Shown: one piece after another, positions 1,493 to 56,658 of the stretch
Layout: every line of letters begins with the position of its first letter
How positions within the stretch are numbered: position 1 is the stretch's first letter
From: a virus
Lineage: Duplodnaviria > Caudoviricetes
Length of the DNA: 64,000 bases
Strand: one strand, 5' to 3'
IMG/VR virus record: IMGVR_UViG_2721755486_000001
Location: 96,001-160,000 of that record
Made by a program: the position numbers and the translations under genes
Notes under the pieces: generated by a model
The model's input: only the letters and a program-made list of their open reading frames with translations
The model's database searches: none
What the model was told of the DNA's origin: nothing

Positions 1493-1660
1493 ATGACCAC
1501 CGCCGCCGAACTCCTCGCCAACGACGTCCTGAAGCAAGGCTTCGCCAGCGTCCTGGCGGGGTACGACGCGTACCGCGCGGAGCAGATCCGCGCAGAGGGC
1601 GAGGCCCTGGCCGCCTTGGTGCAGCACGAGGACGAGCGGCGGTCACGCAAGCGCCTGTAA
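1493..1660 (+). CDS. 55-aa protein ending in the shared Arg-rich tail (not in ORF track)
   Basis: Translated by hand: MTTAAELLANDVLKQGFASVLAGYDAYRAEQIRAEGEALAALVQHEDERRSRKRL*; starts 4 nt after the previous stop. Confidence 0.65.
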   Translation: MTTAAELLANDVLKQGFASVLAGYDAYRAEQIRAEGEALAALVQHEDERRSRKRL

Positions 1661-1732
1661 AACGATCCACCGCTCGGGTTCATCCCGGTCAACACGTGCC
1701 ACGGCACGGCCAATAAAAACGGAATGACGGGC

Positions 1733-1760
1733 TTGACGGGTGTCCAAGACCCGCTAGGTT
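1733..1760 (+). promoter_or_regulatory. Island promoter family A
   Basis: TTGACG ggtgtccaagacccgc TAGGTT; palindrome 37 bp upstream. Confidence 0.65.
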
Positions 1761-1802
1761 GAGGATAGAGCAGCACCACATCCGTAGGCAGAGGAGACCA
1801 GC

Positions 1803-2399
1803 ATGGAAAGCGCGAGCAGCATCTTTATTAAGTGTAGTGTGGCCTTGATTTTTGGCTCCTGCGCTGGCCTCGGCATCGTGGATGTCATGGAGGGTGTGTA
1901 TGGGCATTTTCACAGGGCGGAGCAGAGCCGCAGCGACGCGGTACAGAACGATCACGTTCTCCGGAGGACGCTGATCGCGCACGACAGCGACGGTCACAAG
2001 ACGCTGAACGAGGTTGCCCTTGGGGTGCCGCTGGACGATGCCATGCCGGCCTGCGAAGCCGACCCGGAAAAGGCGACGACCCTTTGCCACACGCCGCTGA
2101 CGCGTACCTACGAGGGGTCCAAGGAGCTGAAGGCGGACGTATATGGCTTCCCGGCGCGCAAGGACGATGACGGAAATCCGACGGTGACGAGCATGACGGT
2201 CACCACGAACCTCAGCTCCACCGTTGTCAAGGACGTTACGGCCAACATCACCCGTGTGTCGGCCTACAAGACTTTCCTGCAGACCAGTCAGGTGCTCGGC
2301 ACTCCGACCCACGTGGACGACAACTACACCAGTTGGAGCCCGGACCAGGGCCCGGTCGTTCTCTTGGACAACACGTTCATCAGCCTCTACCAGGACTGA
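1803..2399 (+). CDS. Exported/membrane-anchored hypothetical protein, paralog of 2409..2936
   Basis: GAGGAG RBS, N-terminal hydrophobic segment; HDSDGHKTLNEVALGVPL..PAC..DP matches next gene. Confidence 0.65.
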   Translation: MESASSIFIKCSVALIFGSCAGLGIVDVMEGVYGHFHRAEQSRSDAVQNDHVLRRTLIAHDSDGHKTLNEVALGVPLDDAMPACEADPEKATTLCHTPLTRTYEGSKELKADVYGFPARKDDDGNPTVTSMTVTTNLSSTVVKDVTANITRVSAYKTFLQTSQVLGTPTHVDDNYTSWSPDQGPVVLLDNTFISLYQD

Positions 2400-2408
2400 C
2401 CCACCACC

Positions 2409-2936
2409 ATGCGCAAGCACATCCTCACCCTCGCGCTGGCCCTAGCCGGCCTGACCGTCGGCACCGCGCACGCGGCGTCACCGCTCCACCTGCTGGCGCG
2501 CGACACGCACGGCCACCTGACGCTCAACGGGGTTCCCCTCGGCGTCCCGGTGGCGTCCTTCGCTCCCGCGTGCCAGGGCGATCCCACGGCGGCCACCCCC
2601 CCGTGCGTGCTGACGACTCCGGAGATCGACGGGTACGGCTTCGCACAGGTCTTCGGGCTCCCCGCGGTGAAGGACGGCGCGGGCCGGCCGGTGTTCAGCG
2701 GGGCCAACGTGACCACGCATAACGGCGTGGTCGACGGCGTGCACCTCGTGTTCGCCGACGATCGGTACGTCACGCTCTTCCGCACCGCCACCAACGAGAC
2801 CGTGGGCCTGGCGGACTTCACGGACCGCAACGGCGTGATGGAGTGGCACGGTGTGCTCAAGGACGCGTACATCGTCCTCGTCCCGGAGGGAGAGGGCGCG
2901 GCGTTCGGCGTGGTGCAGGAAGACCCGACGCCCTGA
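2409..2936 (+). CDS. Secreted hypothetical protein
   Basis: Sec signal MRKHILTLALALAGLTVGTAHA; RDTHGHLTLNGVPLGVPV..PAC..DP. Confidence 0.75.
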   Translation: MRKHILTLALALAGLTVGTAHAASPLHLLARDTHGHLTLNGVPLGVPVASFAPACQGDPTAATPPCVLTTPEIDGYGFAQVFGLPAVKDGAGRPVFSGANVTTHNGVVDGVHLVFADDRYVTLFRTATNETVGLADFTDRNGVMEWHGVLKDAYIVLVPEGEGAAFGVVQEDPTP

Positions 2937-2963
2937 ACGGCACCCAACCACCAGGAGGAGCCC

Positions 2964-3284
2964 ATGGTGTTCGACCCGTTGCAGTTGTTTTTCGGTGGCG
3001 CGTGCGTGCTGACGCTCGTCACCCTCATTTGCCCCGTCTGCATGGTCGTGCTGGCGTCGGCGATCCTCTCGTACATGGTCGGCGCCGGCGTGGGCCTGAG
3101 CCTCGCGGTCGGACCCGGCATCGTCGTTCGCGCGCTGACCAGCGATCACACCCTGGGCTGGCCGGACAACTCGGGGCCCATCTGGTGCGTCGGGGTCCCC
3201 TTGGGCCTGGTGGTGTTCGTCACCCTCATGGCCCTGCTGTTCGGCGAGAAGGACGACACCCAGGCATCGCGTGCACACGCCTGA
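2964..3284 (+). CDS. Small membrane protein
   Basis: AGGAGGAG RBS; about three hydrophobic segments. Confidence 0.6.
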   Translation: MVFDPLQLFFGGACVLTLVTLICPVCMVVLASAILSYMVGAGVGLSLAVGPGIVVRALTSDHTLGWPDNSGPIWCVGVPLGLVVFVTLMALLFGEKDDTQASRAHA

Positions 3285-3318
3285 CCGGGTCCCGGCCTCA
3301 CGTGCGGGGCACCACCTG

Positions 3319-3543
3319 ATGCCGGCGCTGCTGGTCCTGCTGCTCGTCATGGCGGCACCCGCCCAGGCGAAGCAGGCCCAGGCCACCCTCAACGTATCCG
3401 TGACGGTGCTCAGCTCGTGCGCCGTGTCCACGGACCAGCGGGTGGCCACCACCTGTACGGGCAGCAGCACCCCGCCCACCGTCGAGCAACGGGAGCAGGG
3501 CACCAGCCCGGGGAAGGTTCGGCTCACCGTCGTCACGTTCTGA
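3319..3543 (+). CDS. Small secreted protein resembling the N-terminus of spore coat U/Csu-type pilins
   Basis: Signal peptide then QATLNVSVTVLSSCAVS...C; start could be 3271. Confidence 0.5.
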   Translation: MPALLVLLLVMAAPAQAKQAQATLNVSVTVLSSCAVSTDQRVATTCTGSSTPPTVEQREQGTSPGKVRLTVVTF

Positions 3544-3597
3544 AGGGCCGTGCCTTGGCACGGCCCGACCGTTCGTCGTAAAGAGCACCAGGCGCAC

Positions 3598-3625
3598 TTG
3601 ACGGCGCTATACGACCCGCTAGGTT
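3598..3625 (+). promoter_or_regulatory. Island promoter family A
   Basis: TTGACG gcgctatacgacccgc TAGGTT; palindrome at 3550. Confidence 0.65.
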
Positions 3626-3678
3626 CAACCATGAGGCAGCGCGGAGGAGCGGTGCCACCAACCCAACGAGGTACCGCC

Positions 3679-4011
3679 ATGTTCCTTTTCGATCCGTTCG
3701 CACCCGTCGGCAGCGATTTCTTGGTCTTTTGTCAGATGGTCGTGTGCTTTTTTGAGATTGTCCTGTTCTCCATGGTGATTCTGGCGACAACCGTGATAGG
3801 GGTGGGGATCTTCGCGTTAATCCTCGACGCGCTCGCCGGTGGCAATGCCGACACGAAAGACACGCCGCAGAAACGGGCTGACGGCGGCCCCGCCGCATCC
3901 ATCGCTTCCTCGACCGACGCCGCTCAGACCGGCTTGCAGTCCATCGCGCTCGATGCAGCGGTCCACCAGTTGACCGACGCGGTGACCCATTCGCAGGGCA
4001 CCCTGTTCTGA
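3679..4011 (+). CDS. Hypothetical membrane protein
   Basis: GAGGT RBS before MFLFDPFAP; long hydrophobic stretch. Confidence 0.6.
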   Translation: MFLFDPFAPVGSDFLVFCQMVVCFFEIVLFSMVILATTVIGVGIFALILDALAGGNADTKDTPQKRADGGPAASIASSTDAAQTGLQSIALDAAVHQLTDAVTHSQGTLF

Positions 4012-4066
4012 ACCGGCGCACGGCGCGAACCCGCGTCACCGTCCACCCACCACCCGGAGGCATGCC

Positions 4067-4333
4067 ATGTCCCTGATCGCTTTGTCCCACCTCATCCAGC
4101 TCGCTGTGCTCACGGGCGCCGAATCCCTTTACGTCGTGTTCGCCGCGGTGCTCGCCGGCACGGTCGGTCTGTTTGACGGCGCGGCCACGGGCCTTGCGGT
4201 CTTGCACGCGCACCTGAACGTGCTCGGCACGATCGCCCGGCACCCCTGGGTCGTGGGCCGCGTGGCGTGGGTGGTGGCGGTGCTCGTCGCGCTGGGCGGG
4301 GCCTGGCTGCACCAGAAGCGCACCGCGCACTGA
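4067..4333 (+). CDS. Small membrane protein
   Basis: GGAGG RBS, hydrophobic 88 aa. Confidence 0.6.
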   Translation: MSLIALSHLIQLAVLTGAESLYVVFAAVLAGTVGLFDGAATGLAVLHAHLNVLGTIARHPWVVGRVAWVVAVLVALGGAWLHQKRTAH

Positions 4334-4337
4334 TGCC

Positions 4338-4649
4338 GTGCTCGACCTGCTGAAACGCGTGCTGGGTGCCGCCCGCCTGGGGAAAACGGCCCCCGAGCCT
4401 GCCCAGACCAGGGTCCGTCTGTTTCCCAAGCGGTACGACCCGATCGGGACCGACGAGGACGGGTACCCGATCTATTCCCGCGAGGACATGGAGGAACTGT
4501 TCGGGGGCATCCTGGCGGAGCGGCTTGAAGCGGTACGGCTCGAAGCCGAGGAGCGGGCCCGGCGCCTGGCGCAGGAGCGCGCGGAGCTGGCCGCCGTCGT
4601 CGACACCGTGACGACCGAACTGCCGGCCGCGCGACGGCGGCGCCTTTAA
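4338..4649 (+). CDS. Hypothetical protein with shared Arg-rich tail
   Basis: Ends QERAELAAVVDTVTTELPAARRRRL*. Confidence 0.65.
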   Translation: MLDLLKRVLGAARLGKTAPEPAQTRVRLFPKRYDPIGTDEDGYPIYSREDMEELFGGILAERLEAVRLEAEERARRLAQERAELAAVVDTVTTELPAARRRRL

Positions 4650-4674
4650 AGCGATTCACCGCACGAGGACCATC

Positions 4675-5493
4675 ATGGCCAACACCTTGGAACCCCACGA
4701 GCTTGAACGCCGACGTGCGATGGTCGAACACATCCACCCGCGATTCCGCCTCGCCAACCAGCTCCACAAAGCGGCACGGACCGGCGACGTCGAACGGGTC
4801 CGCGCGCTGCTGGCCAGCGGGGTCCCGGTCGATGCGGAGAACGCCGTCGGGCTCCCGCCGATATGGTCGGCCGTCCTAGCCTGGTCCGAGGGGCATAGCG
4901 ACAACGACGGGACCGTGCGCGTCCTCGCGGAAGCGGGGGCCGCACTGGACGTGGAATCCTCGCTGGGCTCTGACAACGTCTGCTACGGAGACCTGTTAGC
5001 GTTGGCGCTGTACGAGGCGGGCCCGCACGCGCTGGCCATTCACCGAACGCTCCTCGACGTGGGCTTCCCGGTGGACCGAAGGAACCATGTTAACGAAACG
5101 CCGTTGGACCGCGTGCTGCTCCGGCACCAGGCGTTCGTGGACACCGCCGATGTGACCCGGGGTGTGACTCGGCTGCTGCTGGACCGCGGCGCTGGGGCGA
5201 ACCAGGACCAGCAGCAATGGGCCAGCCAGCTCGCCTGGGCGGTGTGGAGCGAAGACCTCGAGGTGGTGCGGTGGCTGCTCGACGCCGGCGCGGATCCGCG
5301 GCATCCGGACGAGGACGGGCGCAGGGTGGTCGACCATGACCGGCTGTGGGGACCCAGGTACGTGCCGGTGTTGGACCTGGTATGGGAACGGCTGCATGCG
5401 CTCGACGCCCGGGACAGGGCCATGCTGCGCGCGGTTGCGGACGCTGAGCAGGCGGGACGGGAGGTGCCGACCTTCAGGCGCCGGAGGCTGTAA
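4675..5493 (+). CDS. Ankyrin-repeat protein with shared Arg-rich tail
   Basis: LHKAARTGDVERVRALLASG, NETPLD, VVRWLLDAGADP; ends FRRRRL*. Confidence 0.8.
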   Translation: MANTLEPHELERRRAMVEHIHPRFRLANQLHKAARTGDVERVRALLASGVPVDAENAVGLPPIWSAVLAWSEGHSDNDGTVRVLAEAGAALDVESSLGSDNVCYGDLLALALYEAGPHALAIHRTLLDVGFPVDRRNHVNETPLDRVLLRHQAFVDTADVTRGVTRLLLDRGAGANQDQQQWASQLAWAVWSEDLEVVRWLLDAGADPRHPDEDGRRVVDHDRLWGPRYVPVLDLVWERLHALDARDRAMLRAVADAEQAGREVPTFRRRRL

Positions 5494-5735
5494 AGCTGGG
5501 GCGGGTGCCTGGCGGGAACGTCAAAAGCCCCCGGGTCGCATCCGCTCCCAGGGCACAAAACCCGGTGCTGACGCCGAAGGCCCTGGCGGGTAGCAAGGTT
5601 CCCCGCGGCCTGGGCCGAAGGCACCCAACACCGGAGGCGCTTGCGCCGGGTGGGGTGTCATGGGGTTGGCCGGACCCCACCAAGCCCGTGCCCTGGCACG
5701 GATCCCGTATCACCTCACCGTTCCACCGCCACGAC

Positions 5736-5763
5736 TTGACGGCAGGCCAGGACCCGCTAAATC
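5736..5763 (+). promoter_or_regulatory. Island promoter family A
   Basis: TTGACG gcaggccaggacccgc TAAATC; palindrome at 5688. Confidence 0.55.
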
Positions 5764-5804
5764 AGAACGAACGACAACACCGCAGCACTCGAGGAGAGCC
5801 AACC

Positions 5805-7400
5805 ATGAGCGTCATCGCACAACGCCTTCGCACGTCCACGTATTTCCTGAACGAACTGCCCGGCAGCGACAAAAGGATCGACATGATCCGGTTCGCGCGG
5901 AACGAGCGAACGGAGGCCGATGATTACCACGCCGGTGACGTCTACGTTGCATCGGACCGCCTGGACCCGCCATGCCCGTCGTGCGGTGCCACCATGGCAT
6001 ACCAGGAGGAGGACGTGTGGACCTGCGCCGCGTGCGCGGCGGCCCACGGTGAAGCGGTCCTGGCCGGGTCGGCGACGCTCCCGTTCCGCGGAACGGTGAA
6101 GCTGACCTTCGCCGAACGCGACCGGCTGTTCACGGTCATGGAAGAGCGGCTCAACCGCGAGGTGACACTGGCCGAGGCCAACGCGATGTGGGGCGACTGG
6201 AACGCGCGCCTGCAGGCCTTCGTCCCACCGGCTGCGCCCTTCCAGCGCAAACCGTTCGCGGTGGACCTCCCACCCGAGGCCCGGGCCCAGGTGGACCGCA
6301 TGGTGGAGGTGATCGACACCATGTACCCCAAGGGCGATGACCTCGCGGACTTCCTGGCCAACGCCTCGCCGTTGGTCCAGCAGGGGCATGATGCGATGTT
6401 CGACGCGCTGATCCGGGCCGCTGCGGCCCGGGACGGCATCAGCTCCGGCACGTACGTCACGTTCGGCATCGACGGGACCACCCGGGACGCCACGCCCCTC
6501 TGGTGGAAGCTCTTCAGGCAGGTGGCCGGGGGCGATCCGCGCCAGGCGTTCCGACAACCCAGCCGTCCCGAGACCGTGCGCTTTTACGAACTGGCGAAAC
6601 CGCTGGACGTGGCCCATGCCTGGCGCGTGCTGGACATCCTCGCCCACCACCTCCCCGGGTGCGTCACGGTCAACTCGATCCTGGCGCTTCCCAACGGCAA
6701 GCGGGGGTGGGAGAAGCAGGGCGAGGCCGCGCACCACGCCGTCTCAATGGCCTGGGCGGAGCACCGTTTCGTCCAGCAGCTCCACGCCGTCCAGGCCTAC
6801 CGTGCGCGGCACCCCCGTCGCCCGTGGCGCACGCACGAGGCGTTCAACCGGTTGTTCAACAGGACCTGGCGCTCCCAGCTCCACGTCCAACGGTTGATCG
6901 AGGCCGGCGCGAATCCAGCACAAACGCGGATCTGCACCAGCCTGCTGGGCTCGGGGCCTCTGCTGACCACCATCATCGAAAAGCCGCACCTCAGCGACAA
7001 GAAGACCGCGAAACTGGTGGCGTACCTTCTGGCTCACGGCGCGGACGTGAACGAAACGGCTTCCGGCGGCGAAACTGCGCTGACGAACGCTGCAAGCGCG
7101 GGATACCTGGCCACCGCCAACGTGCTGATTGCGGCGGGCGCCGACGTGCACCACCAGGACGACACCGCGTGGAGCGCCGGGCACTGGGCAGTCGTGCACG
7201 CTCACTTCGAACTGTTCGAACGGCTGGTTGCGGCCGGGCTCGACTCCATGCGGGTGATCGGCGACTACGCCCAGGGCCTCTATGGTCTGGAAACACCGAC
7301 CATCGAAGCGTACTACCGGGACTACGAAGCCAGGATCCTTCGAGAAGCGGCGGACGAGGCCCCGGCCGCACCGGTGCGCAGCGCACGGCGTCGCCTCTGA
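5805..7400 (+). CDS. Zn-ribbon plus C-terminal ankyrin-repeat protein with shared Arg-rich tail
   Basis: GAGGAG RBS; CPSC..CAAC; LLAHGADVN, GETALTNAA, LIAAGADVH; ends VRSARRRL*. Confidence 0.8.
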   Translation: MSVIAQRLRTSTYFLNELPGSDKRIDMIRFARNERTEADDYHAGDVYVASDRLDPPCPSCGATMAYQEEDVWTCAACAAAHGEAVLAGSATLPFRGTVKLTFAERDRLFTVMEERLNREVTLAEANAMWGDWNARLQAFVPPAAPFQRKPFAVDLPPEARAQVDRMVEVIDTMYPKGDDLADFLANASPLVQQGHDAMFDALIRAAAARDGISSGTYVTFGIDGTTRDATPLWWKLFRQVAGGDPRQAFRQPSRPETVRFYELAKPLDVAHAWRVLDILAHHLPGCVTVNSILALPNGKRGWEKQGEAAHHAVSMAWAEHRFVQQLHAVQAYRARHPRRPWRTHEAFNRLFNRTWRSQLHVQRLIEAGANPAQTRICTSLLGSGPLLTTIIEKPHLSDKKTAKLVAYLLAHGADVNETASGGETALTNAASAGYLATANVLIAAGADVHHQDDTAWSAGHWAVVHAHFELFERLVAAGLDSMRVIGDYAQGLYGLETPTIEAYYRDYEARILREAADEAPAAPVRSARRRL

Positions 7401-7422
7401 ACCGACGGGTCCGGCTCCCGTG

Positions 7423-7450
7423 TTGACCTGCGCCCAGTACCCGCTACGTT
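7423..7450 (+). promoter_or_regulatory. Island promoter family A
   Basis: TTGACC tgcgcccagtacccgc TACGTT. Confidence 0.6.
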
Positions 7451-7499
7451 GAACCCATGCCGCGTCGGCGATCGGCGCTCACCACCAGGAGGATCTTTC

Positions 7500-7703
7500 A
7501 TGCGCTTCAAACCCCATTGCCCGTCCTGCACGGGTCCCGTCGTGTACACCCGCCGGCCCGAGTGCTGGTCCTGCGCCACCTGCGAGGTCGCGTACGGTGA
7601 GGCGGTCCAGGCGGACCGTGATCCTCCCGCGTACACCGGCACCTTCGGCCGCGCCGAATACGAGCGGCAGCGGGCCCAGGCCACGGCACAGCACAAGGCC
7701 TGA
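7500..7703 (+). CDS. Small Zn-ribbon protein
   Basis: AGGAGG RBS; CPSC..WSCATC..YGEAV resembles the Zn ribbon of 5805..7400. Confidence 0.65.
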   Translation: MRFKPHCPSCTGPVVYTRRPECWSCATCEVAYGEAVQADRDPPAYTGTFGRAEYERQRAQATAQHKA

Positions 7704-7889
7704 CCAGGCCCGACACCATCCCGGCTGGGGCACGTCCGTGCCCTGGCACATCTCCAAGGCCCCACCCGAGGGGCCTTTCCTCATCTGAACCGTCCAGCGT
7801 CGCGTTGCTCCGATGCGCACGGGCAACAGCGCCCGTGTCGTGGTGCTGATGCTGTGGGAATCGTCGTGACCGTGCCGCCTGGCCCCGTC

Positions 7890-8109
7890 GTTCACCCCGT
7901 TGCGTGTTCCCCGGTCCGCCTCTTCTTCGACGCGTAGCTCCGCCCGTACACCGCGCAAGGGTTCGCTTCGCCAGGTCCTCACCCGGTCCCTCCCTCTGAT
8001 CGGGCATGCGGCCTCCGGTCCTGCCCCTGCACGTTGCCCTGGGCCTCGCTGACCCCGCGTCGAGGCGGCTCCAGCGAACACGGCAACAACGACGAGGAAG
8101 GGCAGAACC
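7890..8109 (+). repeat. Structured leader repeat (Frpo/ssi-like), copy 1 of 4
   Basis: Shares CCCGGTCCGCCT..CGACG..TAG..GCAAGG..GTCCTCACCCGGTCC..TGCGGC.TCCGG blocks with 39955, 41995, 43815. Confidence 0.55.
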
Positions 8110-8298
8110 ATGAGCACGATCACCACCCGCACCACCAGCACCCCGAACAACAACGTCGCGGCGTTCCCCCGCACCCCCGAGGCTCACCAGCGAACAGCAG
8201 GGGAAGGCGACACCAAGGAGGTGGTGCTCAACGGCGCGCGAATCCTCATGCGCTTCACCGACGGGCAGTGGTGGAACGTCCGCGTGAGCAACGCCTGA
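8110..8298 (+). CDS. Small hypothetical protein
   Basis: 62 aa ORF directly after the leader repeat. Confidence 0.55.
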   Translation: MSTITTRTTSTPNNNVAAFPRTPEAHQRTAGEGDTKEVVLNGARILMRFTDGQWWNVRVSNA

Positions 8299-8366
8299 CC
8301 CACAACCCGAACCGCAGGGCCCTGGGGCTAGGGCCTGCATCACAACCGAAACACAGGAGATCAACG

Positions 8367-8597
8367 ATGGCTTACTTTCTTCGCACGGGCGACGACTACC
8401 TCGACCAGGCCGTGAAATACAGCTCCAAGGCCGGCGCGGTCGCGGCGTTCCGCGAAACGTCCGACGAGCTGGACCGCTACGGCCAGTCGATCACGGCCTC
8501 CCTCCACATCGCGGACACCCTGGACGAGGTGGTGGAGTACCCGGACTTCGTTCTGGAGCGTGGCCCCCGCGGTGGCATCAAGGGCGAACGCGCGTAA
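8367..8597 (+). CDS. Small hypothetical protein
   Basis: AGGAG RBS before MAYFLRTG; ends LERGPRGGIKGERA. Confidence 0.7.
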   Translation: MAYFLRTGDDYLDQAVKYSSKAGAVAAFRETSDELDRYGQSITASLHIADTLDEVVEYPDFVLERGPRGGIKGERA

Positions 8598-8763
8598 CGA
8601 TCCTAGGGACCATCTGATCAGATGCCGTGGTCTCAAGCCAGCCTCGGGGGCGTCGTCCAACCCGCGCGGGCGGCCTGGCGGAATGCTCTCGAGCTACTTT
8701 TCCAAGGCATTCTTCGGCTAACATTAACCTTTCGTTTAACCACAAAAATCAAGCGAGGACCAG

Positions 8764-9498: not shown

Positions 9499-9608
9499 CC
9501 CAGCGACGACCAACGGTGATGCTTCGGGGACCATTGTGGGCGTGGTGCATCACCTTCCCCGTGGTTCAGCTTTGGGGTGCCGAGGGACACGCTGGGTCTC
9601 ACCAGCGT

Positions 9609-10298: not shown

Positions 10299-10584
10299 CG
10301 TTGGGCGTGCATGGGTCGGTGGTGCTGGACATGCTACACGACGCGAGGTTGCGGTCGTGCTGGGACCCGGTGCAACACCGCCGGGGCCGGAGGCCCGGCA
10401 CTCGAACACCAACACCAGGACACAGGCACCCCGAACGGCGCCGGGGGCAGGGAGCGGGGCGGTGGCCAGGGGTGGAAGGGCGATCCGTTGGCGCGAGCGA
10501 TGGCCCGGAGGGACCGGGGTTGCTGCGGGCGCGGATGCGGCCGTGTTTGCGGTTTAAGGTGTGCATGGGCACACCTTAAATGAT

Positions 10585-10726
10585 GGCTATAGCGAGGCGT
10601 ATCTCGATAGAAAACGATTCCGGGAATGGTGTCGTAGCCCCTTGCTTAAGTATCTCGGTACGAGATGATGAGTATGTAGGCAGCGCGATCGACGCAACGC
10701 CAAATCCCAACCCCAAGGAGTTCACC
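10585..10726 (+). promoter_or_regulatory. Cassette leader family B
   Basis: GCTATAGCG..CGATAGAAAACGATTCCGGGAATGGTGTCGTAG..TTGCTT..TGTAGGCAGCGCGATCGACGCAA..CCCCAAGGAG; near-identical to 12422-12563. Confidence 0.7.
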
Positions 10727-11248
10727 ATGATCCACCTGTCCCGCAACGAAACCCTGGCTCTGGTTCGCAAAGCCCTTCGCGAAGCCTTCCCGGAAACCTC
10801 GTTCACCCTGCAACCGTCGCGCTCGAAGATCACCGAGCACGGTTGCGACAAGACGGTGTTCGTTAAATGGACCGATGGCCCGAACTCTTCGCAGGTCTTC
10901 GAGGTCATCGCGCGGTTCGAGGATCGAAAGCAAGTCTGGGATCAACCAAAGCCGTGGGACGACAACGCCAAGGTTCACCATCTTCTCGACGGTCACGCTG
11001 TGCGATTCGACCTGTCACGGTTCGGTTACAAACGTGAACTGAGCCAAGGGAGCTGGGACGTCATGGTGGCGAACGGGCGTCTGAACCCGACGCTCTACAC
11101 GACCGAAGCCGCGCAAGGCGCCCCGTCGACCCAACGCGTGAAACATGTCGGCAAGGGCACCTGGGAACGTCAGGAACTGCTCGACCTGGCCGCCGCCGCG
11201 ATGGCCGCCAACGGCCCCGCACCGACCCGGATCCGCGCACGGATGTAA
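10727..11248 (+). CDS. LPD29-like domain protein with shared Arg-rich tail
   Basis: LVRKALREAFPETSF..VKWTDGP recalls large polyvalent protein domain 29; ends TRIRARM*. Confidence 0.65.
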   Translation: MIHLSRNETLALVRKALREAFPETSFTLQPSRSKITEHGCDKTVFVKWTDGPNSSQVFEVIARFEDRKQVWDQPKPWDDNAKVHHLLDGHAVRFDLSRFGYKRELSQGSWDVMVANGRLNPTLYTTEAAQGAPSTQRVKHVGKGTWERQELLDLAAAAMAANGPAPTRIRARM

Positions 11249-11339
11249 TCGCACCTCGCCCACAACGCTGCACCCTGGGCCCGCGGAAACGCGGGTTCGG
11301 CCGTACAGGGCACCCATGCCCATCCGTCCGGAGCATCCC

Positions 11340-11990
11340 ATGAGCACCACCCCGTCCACGGTCCTCGCGACCACGCAGGCCCTGACCGCTACCCAGCGCA
11401 AGGTGGAGGCGGCCCGGGCCGCGCTCCTGCAGTTCGACGAGCAGTTCCAGCGCGAGCAGCAGCACCGGGCGCGCGTCATCAACGCGGTGCGGACCTTCGA
11501 CGCCCTCATGGTCCTGCGACTGCTCGAAGGTGGGCCGGAGGACGACGGCCACGTCCGCCCGGGGGCGCCCGCTCCGAAGCGATTCGAACTGGGCTATCAG
11601 ACGCCGGCCGTCGACCTCGCGGGGGCCGTGGGTGTCGCGGAAGAGGTGCAGGCCTGGCGCGCGGTGACCCCGAAGGCCAGCGTCGTGCGTGCAGAGCTGG
11701 ACGGTCTGCTGGTGGAGCTGGTCGATGCCCTCGGCGAAAAGGACCCGTTCGACGGCCGGTTCTACGTTCCGCACGTCCTGGGGACCGCGCACCTGCTGGT
11801 GTCCGTCGGGTGCCGTGACCGCGTGGTGGACGGCGTCCCGTTGCGCGACCTGCTGCATCAGGCCTGGCGCTACAAGCAACGGAAGGACGATGCCAATGTG
11901 GTGCAGGCGGTGCTGGACCGATGGCTCAAACCGCCGCGCAAGCAGCGTGCGAAACCCGACACCCGCGCCAACACCAACCCGGGGGCCTAG
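11340..11990 (+). CDS. Hypothetical protein
   Basis: GGAG RBS before MSTTPST; second gene of a cassette. Confidence 0.65.
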   Translation: MSTTPSTVLATTQALTATQRKVEAARAALLQFDEQFQREQQHRARVINAVRTFDALMVLRLLEGGPEDDGHVRPGAPAPKRFELGYQTPAVDLAGAVGVAEEVQAWRAVTPKASVVRAELDGLLVELVDALGEKDPFDGRFYVPHVLGTAHLLVSVGCRDRVVDGVPLRDLLHQAWRYKQRKDDANVVQAVLDRWLKPPRKQRAKPDTRANTNPGA

Positions 11991-12421
11991 CGGCCCAGGG
12001 CAGGTCAAAGGCAACATCCCCGGGCCCCGCGCAGCGGACATGGCCGGGCCCCTTGTCCGGGCAGCAGGGGCATGCTGTCCGGGTGCTCCTCACTGCAGGC
12101 CTGGACACCGTCCACCACGGCGAGGTCCGCCCGGCCTGGGCCAGCAGATCCAATGTCCGGGCTGTCCAGGTGTCCGGGCAGAAAAGCTCTGGTGTTGCGC
12201 GGAACGGCACGACGGTTCCTCGACCACCGACGGGCCACCCTCGACAACGGTAATCCGCTGTACCACCTGGACACCTGGACAAAACAAGAAGAACCCCAGC
12301 AGCGCCGGGCACCAGACCATGTCCAAGGTCATGCTCGAACACCTGGGCCAGGGCCTGGACCGGCGTCGGATGAGCCCGGTCAGACCCACGTTAATCCGTG
12401 CCAATGCACACGCTAAAGAAG

Positions 12422-12563
12422 GCTATAGCGTTTCGTGTTTCGATAGAAAACGATTCCGGGAATGGTGTCGTAGACCCCTTGCTTCAGTCCACAGGTACGA
12501 GAAACTGAATGTGTAGGCAGCGCGATCGACGCAATGCCAAAACCACCCCCAAGGAGCCTCACC
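12422..12563 (+). promoter_or_regulatory. Cassette leader family B
   Basis: Direct repeat of 10585-10726. Confidence 0.7.
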
Positions 12564-12989
12564 ATGAACGCAACTTTCAACTTCGCCGATGACCTGAAAA
12601 TCGAAGTGCTCGACGCCGGGTCCCTCGAAAACTATGTGCTGAACGACGACGGTATCGAGACCATCGACGGCGAGTTCACGTTCTATACCCTGGCCGTCCA
12701 AGCCTTCGGTCGCACCTTCAACGTGCGTACGCAACAAGAGCCGAACGGTCACCTCATCGTCCCATCCAGCGAGAACACCGGTGAACCGGACACGGACGCA
12801 ATCATGGCCTGCTCGGAATACTTCGCACTCTTCCAGGCGCTGATCCAGAAGCACCTGGGCATTGAGTTTACGGAAGAAGACCACGAGAACAACGAGTGGG
12901 TTCTGCCCGAGAACATCCAGGCCCTGCATGACGCGGTTGTCGCCCACCTCAAGGCCGTTCTGACGGAAGAAATCGCCGCCACCGCCTGA
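12564..12989 (+). CDS. Acidic hypothetical protein
   Basis: AAGGAG RBS; D/E-rich 141 aa. Confidence 0.7.
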   Translation: MNATFNFADDLKIEVLDAGSLENYVLNDDGIETIDGEFTFYTLAVQAFGRTFNVRTQQEPNGHLIVPSSENTGEPDTDAIMACSEYFALFQALIQKHLGIEFTEEDHENNEWVLPENIQALHDAVVAHLKAVLTEEIAATA

Positions 12990-13014
12990 CATCCAGGCTC
13001 CACGTTCGACCAGG

Positions 13015-13039
13015 GCCAGTCCGCAAGGGCTGGCTTTTG
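13015..13039 (+). terminator. Hairpin-U tract, duplicated at ~13553-13577
   Basis: GCCAGTCC-GCAA-GGGCTGG-(C)TTTT on both sides of 13075..13527. Confidence 0.6.
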
Positions 13040-13074
13040 GGTACCAGCACCCCTTACCGAACCGGAGCCCTTCC

Positions 13075-13527
13075 ATGACCACCACCGCACCGTCCACCCC
13101 TTTGACCGTCAAGCAGGCGGCCCAGGCCTTGGGCGTCAGCGACGGGCGCGTGATGCAGCTCCTGCAGTCCGGCGTGCTTACCCTCATGAATCCCACGACC
13201 GCGCAAACCCGCTCGAAGCACCACCTGGACCCGGCGAGGGTGGAGGCCCTGCGTGCGCAACGTGCGGCCAACAAGCGGGACCCCGCGGTCGTGGAGGCAC
13301 GGCGGCTGGCCCGAATCGCCGAGCGTCGACGCATCGACAAACTGCGCCAGGCCCTGGCCCGCGGGTTGATGACCATGGCCGACGCAGCGCGCGAGCTGGG
13401 CGTTTCTCCCCAACGGGCTTACCAGCTCGTGAACGCGGGGCGATTGCCGACGGTGTTGATCGACGGCCGCCGGCTCGTTCGGCGCGAGGAACTCGACGCG
13501 GTGAAAGCGAGACGGGCACGGGGCTGA
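13075..13527 (+). CDS. Excisionase-like protein with two HTH_17-type domains
   Basis: LTVKQAAQALGVSDGRVMQLLQSG; MTMADAARELGVSPQRAYQLVNAGRL. Confidence 0.8.
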   Translation: MTTTAPSTPLTVKQAAQALGVSDGRVMQLLQSGVLTLMNPTTAQTRSKHHLDPARVEALRAQRAANKRDPAVVEARRLARIAERRRIDKLRQALARGLMTMADAARELGVSPQRAYQLVNAGRLPTVLIDGRRLVRREELDAVKARRARG

Positions 13528-13753
13528 ACGGTTCGACCGGGGCAGGGGCCAGGGCCAGTCCGCAAGGGCTGGTTTTGGGGTACCACAACCCCCCCCGATG
13601 AGGTTCTCCATCCTTTCCGGTCAACTCGACGTCCGCGGCCTTGCCGCAGAACTTGGTCTTTCCCAAACCGAGGTCGGCTTTAGGCTGACCAGGAGTGTTC
13701 CCCAGCTTTCCACCAAACGGATGCTCCTGGACTAGGCGGCTCCGGCCCCGGTC

Positions 13754-14227
13754 ATGGGCGAGACGGCGTCCGGTCCACGGCAACCCAGGTTCTCCGGTGA
13801 CCGTTCCCGTTCAGCGGAACGTGCGCCCGTGCCCGAGGGTTTACTCACCCGACGCCAGGTCGCCCAGGAGCTGGGAATCGTCGTGCAGACCGTGTCGTAC
13901 TTCATCCGGCGCGGGGCACTGGCGACGGTACGGCACAACGGACAAAGCTACGTCCAGCGCGACAGCCTGGAATCGTTCCGCGCGAGCCGATACAGCGCGG
14001 CACGTACGACGCCGACGACGCTGAACGGGGAGGCGGATGTGCTGGGCCTGCACGACGTGATGCGGCTGCTGGGTGTTAACCACCGTCAGGTGGTCGATCG
14101 GCTGGTCCGCGAGGGGCGGCTCAAAGGTACCCGCCCGGACGGCAAGCTCGTCGTGCATCGCGCCGATCTGGAGGCGTTCATGCACGAGCAGCCACGTCGC
14201 AGGGGACGCAAGCCCGTGAAGAACTGA
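13754..14227 (+). CDS. Excisionase-like protein with two HTH_17-type domains
   Basis: LTRRQVAQELGIVVQTVSYFIRRG; LHDVMRLLGV..LVREGRL; start uncertain. Confidence 0.7.
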   Translation: MGETASGPRQPRFSGDRSRSAERAPVPEGLLTRRQVAQELGIVVQTVSYFIRRGALATVRHNGQSYVQRDSLESFRASRYSAARTTPTTLNGEADVLGLHDVMRLLGVNHRQVVDRLVREGRLKGTRPDGKLVVHRADLEAFMHEQPRRRGRKPVKN

Positions 14228-14258
14228 CACCGAGCACAAGGGGGAAACAGGCACCGGT

Positions 14259-14533
14259 GCGAAAACATCAAAAGCTGGGCACAAGGCCCACTCGACCCCG
14301 GCCCGCGCAGCGGAGGAAGCGGGGCTCCAGGGCGCACGCCCGAACATCGCACGCGATCGGGGAGGGCCCATGCCCGTGGGGCAGGTGAAGCGATGAGCAT
14401 GGAGGGTGGCCGGAGGCTCGGGGTTGCAACGGGGCGTGAGCCCCGTTTTTCATGTGCCGTGGCACGGGCCAACCGTTCACCGCGGGGAGGGTCGACCGTT
14501 CGTCAGATAGCACGAAGTTTCTGCGTTCTTACC
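14259..14533 (+). repeat. ~270-bp imperfect direct repeat (second copy 16218-16486)
   Basis: CTGGGCACAAGGCCCACTCG..GCGGGGCTCCAGGGCGCACGCCCGAA..GAGCCCCGTTTTT..palindrome..GTCGACCGTTCGTCAGATAGCACGAAGTTTCTGCGTTCTTACC in both. Confidence 0.8.
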
Positions 14534-14534
14534 G

Positions 14535-14562
14535 TTGCTAAAGACATTGGGGTTTGTAGACT
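14535..14562 (+). promoter_or_regulatory. Cassette promoter TTGCxx..TTTGTAGACTGA (family B)
   Basis: TTGCTA-16-TAGACT; TTTGTAGACTGA also at ~16527, ~18389, ~20927. Confidence 0.6.
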
Positions 14563-14619
14563 GAGTTTATAGGCAGCGCGCAACGACGCAACGCCATCAC
14601 CCCACCCCCGGAGTTCCTC

Positions 14620-15333
14620 ATGATCACCACGACCAGCCCCCTGAAGACCATCGAAGCCATCCGCCGCAGCGCGTACCTCGTGGCCCTCTACTTCACGAAG
14701 ACCACCAGCGAGACCATGCGCATGGAGTTCGACGCCACTGCTGTGGTCAGCGTGACGGTGGACGGCGTGGAGTACATGGTCAAGGTGAGCCGCAGCGCCG
14801 TGGGCGGCGTGGCGATGGAAGAGGACGAGAAGAGCGGTTGCGCAACGCTGAACGTGGCCCTGGACAAAGCCTTGGGCGAAGGCGTGACGCGGCGCGAGCG
14901 GCACGGCATCGAGCGCGAGATTTACCGCACCGCAGGTCTGGCCTTCGACGACGCCGACGATGCACTGACGGCGAAGGGCGCCGGCCTGGTGAACGCGGTT
15001 CGTGCGGCCGAGGCCTTGGGCGATGCGAACCTGCGCGGCATGCTGACCGAACTGCTGGTCCGCGCGCTGCTGGAACGTCACACCCACGTGCTGAACGCGC
15101 TCAGCGGAATCCGGGGTTTGGCGCACCTGGTGTCGAGCGGCCGCCTGCCGGACAGCTCGCTGAGCGAGGTGCTGCGCGAGTTCGCCACGGTCTACAGCCG
15201 GGTCAAGCGGTCCACCGGCGTGCGTCTCGAAGCGCTCCGCAAAGCGTCCGAGGTTCCGGTGACCGAGATCGGCAACGTGAACGTGGTCGCCGACCTCATC
15301 GACACCCTCTACGCGGACGTGGTCCTCCCGTAA
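14620..15333 (+). CDS. Hypothetical protein
   Basis: 237 aa, GGAG RBS after family-B leader. Confidence 0.75.
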   Translation: MITTTSPLKTIEAIRRSAYLVALYFTKTTSETMRMEFDATAVVSVTVDGVEYMVKVSRSAVGGVAMEEDEKSGCATLNVALDKALGEGVTRRERHGIEREIYRTAGLAFDDADDALTAKGAGLVNAVRAAEALGDANLRGMLTELLVRALLERHTHVLNALSGIRGLAHLVSSGRLPDSSLSEVLREFATVYSRVKRSTGVRLEALRKASEVPVTEIGNVNVVADLIDTLYADVVLP

Positions 15334-15437
15334 GGACCGATCGACCAACGTTCAACCAGGGCCCGCGGCAACGCGGGTTTTGGCATAACGGGCCCCATGT
15401 CTTACCCTTCACGCTTGACGCAGGAGAACCGCTCACC

Positions 15438-16184
15438 ATGTCCGCACGCATTACCCCCACCACCGTTCAGGGCCAGGCCTGCCTTCGGCTGAAGGACGCC
15501 ACCGCGTACCTGGGCATGGCCACGAGCAGTAAGCCGTCGGTCTGGCGCAAGGTCCAGTCCGGCGTGTTGCACGGTCTTCAGGACGCCCGGGGCACGTGGT
15601 TTGTCCCGGTCGCGGAGCTGGACCGCTACCTGGCCCAGGCCGCCGACACCTCGCGGGTGGGCCCTCGCGAAGCGGCGGAGCTGCTCGGCGTCTCCATTTT
15701 CACGGTCAAGGCCTGGGCGGAGCGCGGCGTGCTGGACGGCACCCAGGACGATCGGGGCCGGTGGTCGTTCGCACGCAAGACCGTTTCGGCCCACGCGCGG
15801 ACCCTCGTGGAGCAGCGCGAGGGCCTCACCACGTCCGAGGCTGTCCGATTGTGCGGGTTCGGGCACGCCACGACGTTGAACGCGGCGGTGGACCGTGGTG
15901 AGATCCGTGCGTTCGTCGACGCCAGCGGCCGGCGCCGGTTCAAGCAGGACGAGCTGGCGCGATTCCTCGCCGAGCGCGCGAAGCTGGATCCCAACGTGCC
16001 GGGCACCATGAGCAGCCGGGAGGCGGCGGACGTCTTGGGTTTTGCAGCGCTGAGCAGTGTCGGGTGGTTCGCCGAGCGCGGGCACCTGGACCGCGTCCGC
16101 GTCGGGCGGTACTGGCGCTACCCGGTGAAGTCTGTCCAGGCGTTCAAGCGGCAGCGGGACAAGCAGGCCCAGGCCAAAGGCTGA
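15438..16184 (+). CDS. Excisionase-like protein with four tandem HTH_17-type domains
   Basis: LRLKDATAYLG; VGPREAAELLGVSIFTVKAW; LTTSEAVRLCG; MSSREAADVLG; AGGAG RBS. Confidence 0.8.
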   Translation: MSARITPTTVQGQACLRLKDATAYLGMATSSKPSVWRKVQSGVLHGLQDARGTWFVPVAELDRYLAQAADTSRVGPREAAELLGVSIFTVKAWAERGVLDGTQDDRGRWSFARKTVSAHARTLVEQREGLTTSEAVRLCGFGHATTLNAAVDRGEIRAFVDASGRRRFKQDELARFLAERAKLDPNVPGTMSSREAADVLGFAALSSVGWFAERGHLDRVRVGRYWRYPVKSVQAFKRQRDKQAQAKG

Positions 16185-16217
16185 ACCAGGGGCGGGGTGG
16201 GGAACACCGGAACCGGC

Positions 16218-16486
16218 GCGAAAACCAAAACCTGGGCACAAGGCCCACTCGGCCCCGGCACCGCGGAGCGGATGGGAGCGGGGCTCCAGGGCGCACGCCC
16301 GAAGAACGCACGCGGAGGTGGCGCCGGTCAGGGGCGCGGTGAGGTGGCAGGGCGTCGACCGCAGGTGATGGCCCTGTGGTGAGTTGGTCGCGAGCCCCGT
16401 TTTTTCATGTGCCCTGGCACGGGTCAAGCATTCACCGTCGAGGGTCGACCGTTCGTCAGATAGCACGAAGTTTCTGCGTTCTTACC
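16218..16486 (+). repeat. ~270-bp imperfect direct repeat, second copy
   Basis: Aligns with 14259-14533. Confidence 0.8.
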
Positions 16487-16592
16487 ACACAAATCCCGCT
16501 TACCGCCGTTGCTTGTTTTGATGGGTTTTGTAGACTGAATGTATAGGCAACGCGCAACGACGCAATGCCACAACCCCACCCCGGAGTCCTCC

Positions 16593-16775
16593 ATGCGCCC
16601 CATCGTTCACCTCTTCTTCCTCCTGGTCACCGTGCTCCTGATCGGACTTCTGTCCGTCGCTCAGCACATCGGCCGTGGCCACCTGGCCAGCGTCGTCCTC
16701 CTCACCTCCTTCCCGCTGGGCATGGCCGGCACCGCGCTGTACCTTGCGATCCGCGACCGCGTGAAGCGCACCTGA
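16593..16775 (+). CDS. Small two-TM membrane protein
   Basis: GGAG RBS before MRPIVHLFFLL. Confidence 0.6.
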   Translation: MRPIVHLFFLLVTVLLIGLLSVAQHIGRGHLASVVLLTSFPLGMAGTALYLAIRDRVKRT

Positions 16776-16844
16776 ACCCACCGTCCAACCACTTGGCCCG
16801 TCGGGAGGCGGGCACCCCTCACACCCACCCCACGAGATTCGATC

Positions 16845-17279
16845 ATGACCACCGCTACCCCCACCAGCCCCGCCGACTTGAAATCCGGGATCAACTTCAC
16901 GTTCCGGAAGCTCCACCTCACCACCAAGTCCGTCGTGCGCTTCATCGCGCACAGCGGCAAGGTGTTCGAAGCGACCAGCCTCGAGGAAGCCATCGAGCTG
17001 GCCGAGGACGGCCTCGGCGTCTCGCTCGACTACGGTATGGAGGAACACGGTCGTCTCGAACGCGTGACCCTGGTCCGCAGCCGGTCCGGCAAGTGGCTCG
17101 AGCCGAAGGTTCGGCGTGAACGGGTTTGGCCGAACACGCCGGAATGGCAGGCGGTCCGTCAGACCCTTCGGGACGTGCTCGACGCGTTCCAGAACCGCGC
17201 CTTGGTTGGCCCGTGCCCCTACGACGAGGACGGCTACCTCCCGGGCGAGCGCGAGGCGGAGGCGGCGCTGGCCTGCTGA
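16845..17279 (+). CDS. Hypothetical protein
   Basis: 144 aa, GC-rich third positions. Confidence 0.7.
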   Translation: MTTATPTSPADLKSGINFTFRKLHLTTKSVVRFIAHSGKVFEATSLEEAIELAEDGLGVSLDYGMEEHGRLERVTLVRSRSGKWLEPKVRRERVWPNTPEWQAVRQTLRDVLDAFQNRALVGPCPYDEDGYLPGEREAEAALAC

Positions 17280-17363
17280 GCGGCAGAGGCACCCAACGTT
17301 GACCCAGGGGCCGCGGGAACGCGGCTTTCCGGGTACCATCCACCGACCCCATCGGAGCAGCAC

Positions 17364-18080
17364 ATGAGCAACGAACAGAAGCCGAACCAGTTTGAGCGCA
17401 AACTCCGGGCGCAAAGCCCGGTGAATGACCTGATCTACGCGGGGTGCTACGACGACGCGATGGCGGCGATCCGTGCGCAGTTTTGCGGGGATGACCAGAC
17501 GGCGGTGCCGGAACGGTTCAACTTCTACCTTGAGAACTGGCTGTACGACGTTGTTGGCGCGGTACGGAAGCCGGAAGGTCGTTCAGCGTTCATCCGAGAA
17601 CTGCTGACCTTGAGCGACCAGGACCCGGTGATGGCGTTCTGGCGCGTCGCGAACACCCACGGTGTTCAGCCCGACGTTTACCCAGACCTGGTGGACATCC
17701 TTCGCGCTGACCTGAACCGCGTGGTCTCGCTTTACGTGACCCCTGGGCTCAACCTCTCCGCCCGGGAGGGCTCCGAGTTCATGGTTGGGCCGTTGTGGCT
17801 GGTCCTCCTGTTGTGCGTGTGCCGGCCGTCCCGGTCCGGTTCGCTCGGTGTGCTGGCGTACAAGAAGTCGTTCAGCGACGAGGACCTCGAGTGGATCGAC
17901 CAGGCCGCGGCCCTGGCGGTGAAGCATGGCGCGGACCTCGGGCTCTGCAACACGGTCACCTGGAAGCGCAGCAAGCCGGTCCAGCAGGCGATGGTGGCGA
18001 ACATCGAAGCCCGGCACCTGCGCCAGGCGGTGGGCGAGGACACGGCCGACCGGGAGCAACCCATCCGCGCACGGGTCTAA
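17364..18080 (+). CDS. Hypothetical protein with shared Arg-rich tail
   Basis: GGAG RBS; ends IEARHLRQAVGEDTADREQPIRARV*. Confidence 0.7.
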   Translation: MSNEQKPNQFERKLRAQSPVNDLIYAGCYDDAMAAIRAQFCGDDQTAVPERFNFYLENWLYDVVGAVRKPEGRSAFIRELLTLSDQDPVMAFWRVANTHGVQPDVYPDLVDILRADLNRVVSLYVTPGLNLSAREGSEFMVGPLWLVLLLCVCRPSRSGSLGVLAYKKSFSDEDLEWIDQAAALAVKHGADLGLCNTVTWKRSKPVQQAMVANIEARHLRQAVGEDTADREQPIRARV

Positions 18081-45969: not shown

Positions 45970-45978
45970 GGCGTCAAC

Positions 45979-50088: not shown

Positions 50089-50099
50089 GGAAGGACAAG

Positions 50100-56657: not shown

Positions 56658-56658
56658 T

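Follow-up and report, generated by a model that had tools for sequence, protein, structure and literature searches.

A common C-terminal tail on unrelated proteins of a Burkholderiaceae conjugative island, a candidate recruitment signal for protein transfer

Coupling proteins are the substrate receptors of type IV systems. To our knowledge, most protein substrates of conjugation carry no simple recognizable signal, and these missing signals make it hard to tell proteins delivered to the recipient from those made there. For VirB/D4 systems a signal has been described: according to the parts of PMC3937733 and PMC3417381 available to us, the substrates VirF, VirE2, VirE3, VirD5 and VirD2 have an Arg-rich C-terminal signal, which in Agrobacterium is read through the coupling protein, and PMC3417381 gives its consensus as R-X(7)-R-X-R-X-R. 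The F-type system pED208 transfers maintenance and leading-region proteins (PsiB, SSB, ParA, ParB and PsiA) to recipients in a coupling-protein-dependent manner (PMC8406263, available in part). Here we analysed a stretch of 64,000 nucleotides (the window, G000:C1:1969597-2033596) from genome G000, which has 7.95 Mb in two chromosomes and a 177-kb plasmid. The window holds part of a Burkholderiaceae island with conjugation genes, and a short alignable C-terminal tail marks a whole set of unrelated proteins in this one element family.

Six unrelated proteins with one tail

The initial annotation of the window had described six open reading frames (ORFs) on the plus strand, from 1493 to 18080, which terminate in a common bipartite tail, and translation confirmed their ends exactly (Table 1). 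All six show the codon-position G+C pattern typical of real genes. Their bodies had been said to differ, and they do: without the last 35 residues no significant similarity was found between them (BLASTP, best E 0.03), and the weak matches of ankyrin body to ankyrin body were no better than those of other carrier pairs. Pfam agreed with the annotation on two ankyrin carriers (4675 and 5805) and one LPD29-like carrier (10727), and found no family for those at 1493, 4338 and 17364; the ESM Atlas offered no usable look-alike for the 103-aa protein. The six tails differ in codon usage and no DNA repeat spans them. Because the codons differ, the DNA is unrepeated and the bodies are unrelated, the likeness of the tails lies at the protein level and does not come from one ancestral gene.

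Table 1. Tail-bearing ORFs and transfer genes of the window
Position	Strand	Product	C-terminal end	Tail	Evidence
1493-1660	+	55-aa protein, barely more than the tail	EGEALAALVQHEDERRSRKRL	~1559-1657	no Pfam family; pattern and profile match
4338-4649	+	103-aa protein, no known family	ERAELAAVVDTVTTELPAARRRRL	~4548-4646	pattern and profile match
4675-5493	+	ankyrin-repeat protein	DRAMLRAVADAEQAGREVPTFRRRRL	~5392-5490	Ank_4, Ank, Ank_2
5805-7400	+	531 aa, zinc-ribbon-like stretch and ankyrin repeats	EARILREAADEAPAAPVRSARRRL	~7299-7397	Pfam
10727-11248	+	173-aa LPD29 protein	ERQELLDLAAAAMAANGPAPTRIRARM	~11147-11245	PF18847, E 1.3e-8
17364-18080	+	238 aa, no known family	EARHLRQAVGEDTADREQPIRARV	~17979-18077	
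26524-29136	+	870-aa P-loop ATPase, marginally VirD4-like			PF02534, 20.8 bits, E 2e-4
29927-32497	+	type IV coupling protein, 856 aa, acidic C-terminal extension			PF10412, E 4e-18; PF12696, E 4e-12
32628-35996	+	MOBF relaxase-helicase, TrwC family			PF08751, E 3e-65; NF041492 MobF above cut-off

Translation also bore out the remark that the smallest carrier is little more than the tail. This 55-aa protein has an orthologue in an island of Paraburkholderia sp. BL21I4N1 (described below), where the ORF keeps an identical start, length and frame; of 56 codons, 10 differ between the two copies only synonymously and 19 non-synonymously. The starts of the 5805 and 10727 ORFs match those of their database homologues. 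The product of 4675-5493 has 272 aa when counted from the first ATG, and its database copy has 257 aa.

By its sequence, the tail is a short, portable linear motif that occupies about the last 25-35 residues of a protein, and all of the 24 tails examined terminate at the stop codon. Three parts can be distinguished. The tail begins with a predicted amphipathic helix, in which a hydrophobic or aromatic residue is followed by E, any three residues, L, any two residues, two small hydrophobics and, in many tails, D or E. Next comes a linker that varies from about 5 to 17 residues, is mostly acidic and in many cases has a Pro close to its end. The tail finishes with a basic end (RxR or RRR, often RxRxR), whose terminal residue, with its free carboxylate, is L (in a few tails M, V or F). 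When 14 tails from three genomes were aligned, one Leu and one Arg were invariant, and one Glu and a second Arg were present in at least 90%. The initial annotation had pointed to the positively charged C-terminal signals of VirB/D4 substrates. In the 24 tails the net charge of the last 8 residues is +1 to +4, but that of positions -9 to -20 is -4 to +1, and the last 30 residues together carry -1 to +7.

Orthologues of the carriers were compared in the same way. In 8 orthologues of the 17364-18080 protein, IEARH, the Pro and the R-A that opens the basic end are all invariant, and the linker and the basic end vary in length; the window copy seems shortened, with a RARV end against RARGRARL or RARARSRL in other orthologues. 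In three orthologues of the 5805-7400 protein (P0017, P0018 and P0020) and in its Paraburkholderia counterpart, helix and ARRRL end are preserved around a linker of about 8 to 17 residues. An AlphaFold model of the 17364-18080 protein placed the helix motif within a helix at residues 205-226 and the last 12 residues in coil, at low confidence (pLDDT 58, and <50 in this part), and Foldseek with the model found nothing in the PDB at E <= 0.001. No C-terminal Pfam family was recognized in the six carriers or in nine further proteins with a tail or a tail-like end.

The pattern [ED]...L..[AVLIM][AVLIMG].{4,22}R.R[LMVI]-stop was written from the six tails and matched against the whole of genome G000. 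It occurs in 8 of 87,123 six-frame ORFs of at least 45 aa, six of them in these 17 kb and two elsewhere. Ends of the simpler type basic-x-basic-hydrophobic are found in 49 of 7,492 gene-like ORFs, 7 of them in the island, and many of the other 42 are porin-like ...RHKF ends (judged by eye). A profile of 11 tails gave the six carriers E values from 9e-10 to 1.4e-6 per genome, and the next place had 0.107. Because pattern and profile were built from these tails, the six match both by construction. The independent test is that the pattern, once fixed on G000, also matched tails in other genomes. These results indicate that the sharing of the tail is well beyond chance, and chance is excluded.

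Two further reading frames upstream of the window resemble the carriers. At L004:12310-12480 (G000:C1:1961907-1962077), about 7.5 kb upstream, a 56-codon open frame with no start codon ends in ELHAIADAEASAPVEARARRRL. It is the 8th-best profile place in the genome (E 0.2) and looks like the remnant of a seventh tail-bearing gene, severed beside a minus-strand gene. At L004:4367-4933 (G000:C1:1953964-1954530), a 188-aa protein with a weak HTH_17 match ends in KDLEQFEKLRGPVRRRW, a tail-like variant with a terminal Trp; it is kept in the Paraburkholderia island, with an RRHW end there.

The tail region has repeated elements between its genes as well. A promoter-like unit (TTGAC, 17 nt, CCCGCTAGGTT) stands before gene groups of the region in four copies (1732-1760, 3597-3625, 5735-5763 and 7422-7450), and the palindrome GTGCC-N4-GGCAC occurs at 3545, 5683, 7731, 18274 and 19030; together, units and palindromes suggest a single regulator for the whole gene set. 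Long intergenic repeats, 76-100% identical and spaced by about 1.9 kb, are placed before genes (10579-10730, 12415-12567, 14228-14619, 16190-16582 and 18384-18444), and their motif GTCGACCGTTCGTC reappears in the inverted repeat at 25908-25932 (see below). Hairpin promoters in these repeats were considered and found unsupported (fold z 0.43).

Distribution of the tail in related islands

The coupling protein of the window has a single close relative among 185,579 species genomes, at 84% identity in Paraburkholderia sp. BL21I4N1, and this peptide-pattern scan returned the Paraburkholderia island alone whether a single protein or an alignment was the query. Among 198 family genomes scored, one relative at 48% identity was found (G044). 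The Paraburkholderia island is syntenic with the window island over more than 100 kb. In 120 kb of it the pattern matched 5 of 1,462 ORFs, all inside the element. Three of these tails are orthologues of tails 1, 4 and 6; the remaining two (ends 533039 and 553623) belong to other proteins, and for one of these, tailed homologues exist among Burkholderia database records.

Tails were also found in two more distant elements. In 120 kb around an element of Pandoraea cepalis (G345), the pattern matched 3 of 1,381 ORFs, all inside the element. The three carriers are adjacent to each other, have no homologue in the window island at E < 1e-6, and adjoin an ArdA-like gene, ParA, a coupling protein (24% identity to that of the window) and a TrwC relaxase. 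On contig C7 of G044, a genome of 57% G+C, the pattern matched 1 of 354 ORFs, an ankyrin protein inside the element. A TrwC relaxase and a coupling protein are present in all four tail-bearing elements, and an ArdA-like gene in the three checked (G000, G345 and G044). Because the Pandoraea element has neither the 870-aa ATPase nor the 1013-aa VirB4-like ATPase of the window island (see below), the transfer parts shared by the four elements are the coupling protein and the relaxase. The Pandoraea element also encodes a lone DotA/TraY-family protein at L064:6443-9040 (G345:C1:139443-142040; TIGR04346, E 2e-100), with no DotI/IcmL match in G345.

The pattern was not matched around four distant coupling proteins in the stretches fetched: 0 of 1,521 ORFs in 120 kb (G019), 0 of 1,424 in 120 kb (G135), 0 of 219 in 20 kb (G116) and 0 of 516 in 40 kb (G178). 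In a family-wide profile search, 27 places in 22 of 399 other genomes reached E <= 0.01, and only one of them, in G345, was at a C-terminus; the 26 weak places were never C-terminal and mostly wrong-frame Arg/Ala-rich translations. At E <= 0.001 the profile found nothing in 400 genomes of the order and 399 of the class. These surveys scored 19 candidates per genome and the profile, which is weak on tails of lower G+C, missed the G044 tail (5.9 bits locally), so that all their counts are lower bounds.

Among database proteins, the tails are kept in copies from B. vietnamiensis, B. gladioli, B. cenocepacia and B. cepacia, with drift in linker length and sequence. A profile search of 1.84 billion representatives, for which 35 positions are too short a profile, gave one protein at E <= 0.001, a 181-aa LPD29 homologue of 10727-11248 that matches at residues 146-181, its own C-terminus. 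A word-indexed search with a 48-residue tail alignment (8,000 candidates scored) gave 19 proteins, 4 of them the window's own and 15 in families already aligned, hence no new carrier family; because these hits were selected by the tail, they are uninformative on tail-less homologues. Against 72,556 plasmids, tblastn with the 17364-18080 protein found nothing, and the coupling protein had matches of 22-28% identity only.

Ala/Arg-rich ends might arise by chance in GC-rich coding. Genome G000 has 68-69% G+C, and the weak profile matches in relatives are largely of such a kind. This explanation is contradicted by the counts and keeps practically no weight: the background is 2 pattern matches in 7.9 Mb compared with 6 in 17 kb, 0 of the 26 weak matches is C-terminal, and the pattern reappears in the 57% G+C genome on an ankyrin protein. 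Nor is the tail equally common in chromosomal proteins of GC-rich hosts, a finding in which the initial annotation had seen a possible disproof and which was looked for in G000 and about 1,200 sampled relatives. In conclusion, the motif exists, is modular, is conserved as a pattern and is restricted to this element family.

A possible role in protein transfer

We propose, with a probability of roughly 0.5, that the tail is an element-specific recruitment signal for protein transfer. It would mark soluble proteins of the probable leading region of one Burkholderiaceae family of integrative conjugative elements (ICEs) and recruit its carriers to a receptor encoded by the element, most obviously the coupling protein. 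The carriers would then pass into the recipient cell with the DNA or before it, and there the ankyrin, LPD29 and unknown proteins may aid establishment of the element. The strictly C-terminal position on unrelated bodies would support the export-tag reading, as would the two short parts kept across a drifting linker, the restriction to one element family, and the lack of a tail on neighbouring products (genes within 1803-4333) that have signal-peptide-like or membrane-like starts (judged by eye). Precedents are the Arg-rich VirB/D4 signals (PMC3937733, PMC3417381) and F-type protein transfer (PMC8406263), as far as the available parts of these papers go.

A host hub would be expected to serve host proteins with the motif as well, and G000 yielded none, so that the receptor is likely element-encoded. 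The coupling protein may be the tail reader because it is common to all four elements and belongs to a class known as substrate receptors. The net charge of its last 200 residues is -15 to -23 in all four, and this acidic extension could meet the basic end of the tail.

The initial annotation had counted two VirD4-like ATPases in the island. The one at 29927-32497 is a clear coupling protein, but the other, at 26524-29136, barely touches PF02534 (a single 65-residue stretch, cut-off 20.1 bits), has no PDB relative by sequence search, and has no homologue in G044 or G345, both of which bear tails. The relaxase is the sole TrwC match in genome G000. The island extends about 90 kb beyond the window on the upstream side, where further ankyrin genes, a second LPD29 gene, methylases, UmuDC, ArdA-like and DUF6876 proteins, topoisomerase III genes and a P4-type primase are encoded. 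The tail genes are on the same strand as the coupling-protein/relaxase operon and 5' of it, and a ParA gene with a small partner lies downstream of them on the strand opposite to the transfer genes. Farther upstream, the UmuDC and methylase genes are on the opposite strand and the ArdA-like gene is on the plus strand. Between tail genes and operon, 24119-26000 has no gene-like ORF and a G+C that dips to 0.58, and a 25-nt inverted repeat at 25882-25932 is inside this gene-free stretch (~24.1-26.0 kb), which is a candidate oriT region. The place of the tail genes, upstream of the transfer operon and on its strand, fits a leading region with oriT in between (for the concept, see the available part of PMC11541004).

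Some 110 kb upstream from the coupling protein, L024:16425-19466 (minus strand) encodes a 1013-aa ATPase for which Pfam and NCBIfam gave weak VirD4-like matches only. It is syntenic in G201, 76% identical in the Paraburkholderia island and 37% in G044, and its neighbours, proteins of 1544 and 575 aa and smaller ones, belong to no known family. PDB sequence searches typed neither this nor the 870-aa ATPase. The region might encode a mating-pair module of very divergent sequence; G000 has no recognizable PF03135 VirB4. Relaxase and coupling protein are clear in the island, and the 1013-aa protein is the candidate for its VirB4-class ATPase.

Several results weigh against a transfer signal. No PF03135 VirB4 was recognized in G000, where DotA/TraY (TIGR04346) is absent too; DotI/IcmL (PF11393) had no match in any of the four tail-bearing genomes, in a search that had no positive control; and Pfam and NCBIfam recognized no further mating-pair proteins in the island. 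The element therefore looks like a very large ICE with an untyped apparatus. The position of oriT, and hence the label of leading region, comes from gene order alone. The co-occurrence with coupling protein and relaxase that the initial annotation had suggested holds in so far as all four islands carry both, but their coupling proteins form no tighter group: G345 and G000 score 131-134 bits against each other, and the tail-less G019 and G135 score 126-133 against G000. The acidic extension is also present on the coupling proteins of G116 and G178, with no tail nearby in the 20 and 40 kb searched. Of the roughly 24 genes of the stretch only 6 are tailed, and other ankyrin and LPD29 proteins of the island have no tail. 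Single-strand folding of one copy of the intergenic repeats was unremarkable (z 0.43). None of the 24 tails has R-X(7)-R-X-R-X-R in its last 30 residues. When the profile was run on 720 ORF ends of pTiC58 (150-214 kb), VirE2, VirE3, VirD5 and VirD2 were not among the best 15 rows (E 2 to 14). Of the inference of an export tag, what stands is a modular tail confined to islands with coupling protein and relaxase; the Agrobacterium consensus and a typed apparatus are not there to back it.

A last point on this side is that a short half-life remains a live rival, because the end of the tail resembles a MuA-type ClpX degron. The basic run with an aliphatic end would then be read by a host AAA+ protease (ClpXP of the C-motif-2 type, or Lon) and make establishment proteins short-lived. 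The MuA C-motif-2 CILEQNRRKKAI has such a basic run and aliphatic end (PMC12723719, available in part), the tails end in RRRRL, ARRRL, RARL or RARM, and transient action would suit leading-region proteins. We consider this fairly improbable: no chromosomal protein of G000 bears the whole tail, although the substrates of a host protease include host proteins; a terminal degron would have no need of the invariant helix that lies 15-25 residues before it; and the specificity for one element family would be left unexplained. If it is a degron nevertheless, leading-region proteins would be built for short lives.

It is unlikely, but slightly less so, that the tail docks its carriers on another partner with no export, be it the relaxosome or the transferred strand, the partition complex, a chaperone or inhibitor of the element, or DNA through the Arg-rich end. 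Docking would fit the weak link of the tail to coupling-protein phylogeny and the HTH_17 proteins of the tail stretch, which likewise end basic, and the four elements share further genes of unknown role, for a 399-aa (59% identity), a 106-aa (73%) and an ArdA-like protein (42%). No result singles out any candidate partner, however, and DNA binding does not account for the strict C-terminal position or the aliphatic last residue.

Arg-rich ends can serve as localisation signals, and ankyrin-repeat proteins make up 3 of the 11 distinct carriers, as would suit a nuclear or nucleolar targeting signal of ankyrin-type effectors inside a eukaryotic host. This is very unlikely, since the carriers are mostly non-ankyrin, the tails are set among conjugation and anti-restriction genes, and the helix would stay unexplained.

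Directly after the window, at L005/L006 (G000:C1:2033597-2073596), there is a prophage with a gpA-type terminase, a lambda-type portal, a 692-aa capsid-containing protein and a 3193-aa tail protein. It is regarded as a separate element because no head or tail module was seen in the fetched stretches of the related islands. C-terminal cargo peptides are known from encapsulins, and with the terminase, portal and capsid gene just downstream (L005) the tail might be imagined to be a packaging signal for the phage head. This is scarcely credible and was dropped: no phage head genes were seen in the 120-kb stretches around the Paraburkholderia and Pandoraea islands (Pfam covering only ~126-171 kb in Pandoraea), the Paraburkholderia island gives way to housekeeping genes, and a search of 50,697 phage records with the coupling protein gave no match.

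If the tail is an export signal, as we propose, the effector repertoire of such an island could be read straight from the sequence. The tail alone would predict the effector set of the element and could serve as a portable export tag, its recognition by a divergent coupling protein could be tested directly with peptides, and the roles of the ankyrin and LPD29 proteins in establishment or anti-defence would become testable. The carriers are found in Burkholderia cepacia-complex species, B. gladioli and Pandoraea, in which genes for defence and competition travel on islands of this kind.

The window contains other features around these genes. Just past the last tail gene and on the opposite strand, 19063-19821 encodes an LRAT/NlpC-P60-like protein whose C-terminal stretch is rich in Ala, Gly and Val. 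A type VI effector-immunity style cargo at 44794-47237 (minus strand) consists of a PAAR protein, a 246-aa protein and a TsiV-family immunity protein, and is kept in the Paraburkholderia island. At 48160-50139 (minus) and 53921-57429 (plus) there is an apparent defence islet of G+C 0.50-0.57, with a retron-type reverse transcriptase that has a C-terminal protease-like part, a weak integrase-like ORF and a PtuA-like ATPase. At 58525-60684 (minus), a 719-aa protein has a ParB-like N-terminal part fused to an H-NS C-terminal DNA-binding domain.

Comparison with known C-terminal signals

The initial annotation had named C-terminal signals of VirB/D4 substrates, and the available parts of PMC3937733 and PMC3417381 bear it out. 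Like the Agrobacterium signal described there, the tail is C-terminal, Arg-rich, has R-x-R spacing and occurs on unrelated proteins. It also lies in the last 20-50 residues, where the Agrobacterium signal is placed, and 11 of the 24 tails have R-x-R-x-R in the last 10 residues. Unlike that signal, it has its basic run at the very end with an aliphatic closure, and a conserved helix and acidic linker before it, and it occurs beside a MOBF relaxase, with no VirB-type apparatus recognized.

Two families of effectors have larger C-terminal modules. BID is a folded domain of about 100 residues, and XVIPCD is a domain of about 120 residues. The tail resembles the signal of Bartonella Beps (a BID domain and a positively charged tail; PMC8714903, available in part) in having two parts with a basic end, and the XVIPCD of Xanthomonas type IV effectors (PMC8740702, likewise in part), which is VirD4-read in Xanthomonas, in being a C-terminal module shared by unrelated effectors. 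Where Beps have the BID domain, the tail has only one helix of about 10 residues, and Pfam sees no domain in the tails. In contrast to XVIPCD, it has about 30 residues and no Pfam family, and the smallest carrier is 55 aa in total. A folded C-terminal domain of about 100-120 residues is not found in the tails.

Dot/Icm (type IVB) C-terminal signals carry acidic 'E-block' residues. The tail is similar in being short and C-terminal with acidic residues about 10-20 from the end, positions -9 to -20 being net negative in 17 of the 24 tails, and one tail-bearing element, that of Pandoraea, has a DotA/TraY-family gene. It differs in its strongly basic end; G000 has no DotA/TraY, and DotI/IcmL matched in none of the four genomes.

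For the pED208 substrates a shared linear signal is not described in the available part of PMC8406263, which sets the present set of proteins apart. The tail and the ClpX C-motif-2 degron of MuA (PMC12723719, in part) both have basic residues and then an aliphatic one at their free C-terminus, and this is a likeness only: that degron is read by a host protease and present in host proteins, whereas the tail has a second conserved part and is absent elsewhere in G000. A description of the tail was not found in the literature on type IV signals, leading regions and ClpX, where the motif itself was not a search term. Somewhat more tentatively than the recruitment signal itself, we suggest that the helix, the acidic linker and the basic, aliphatic-ended tip form an undescribed three-part C-terminal address, by which large Burkholderiaceae conjugative islands may inject a variable set of proteins (ankyrin, LPD29 and unknown ones, up to six or more) into recipient bacteria through a very divergent apparatus. 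The tail would work like the known C-terminal type IV signals but is a member of no defined signal family.

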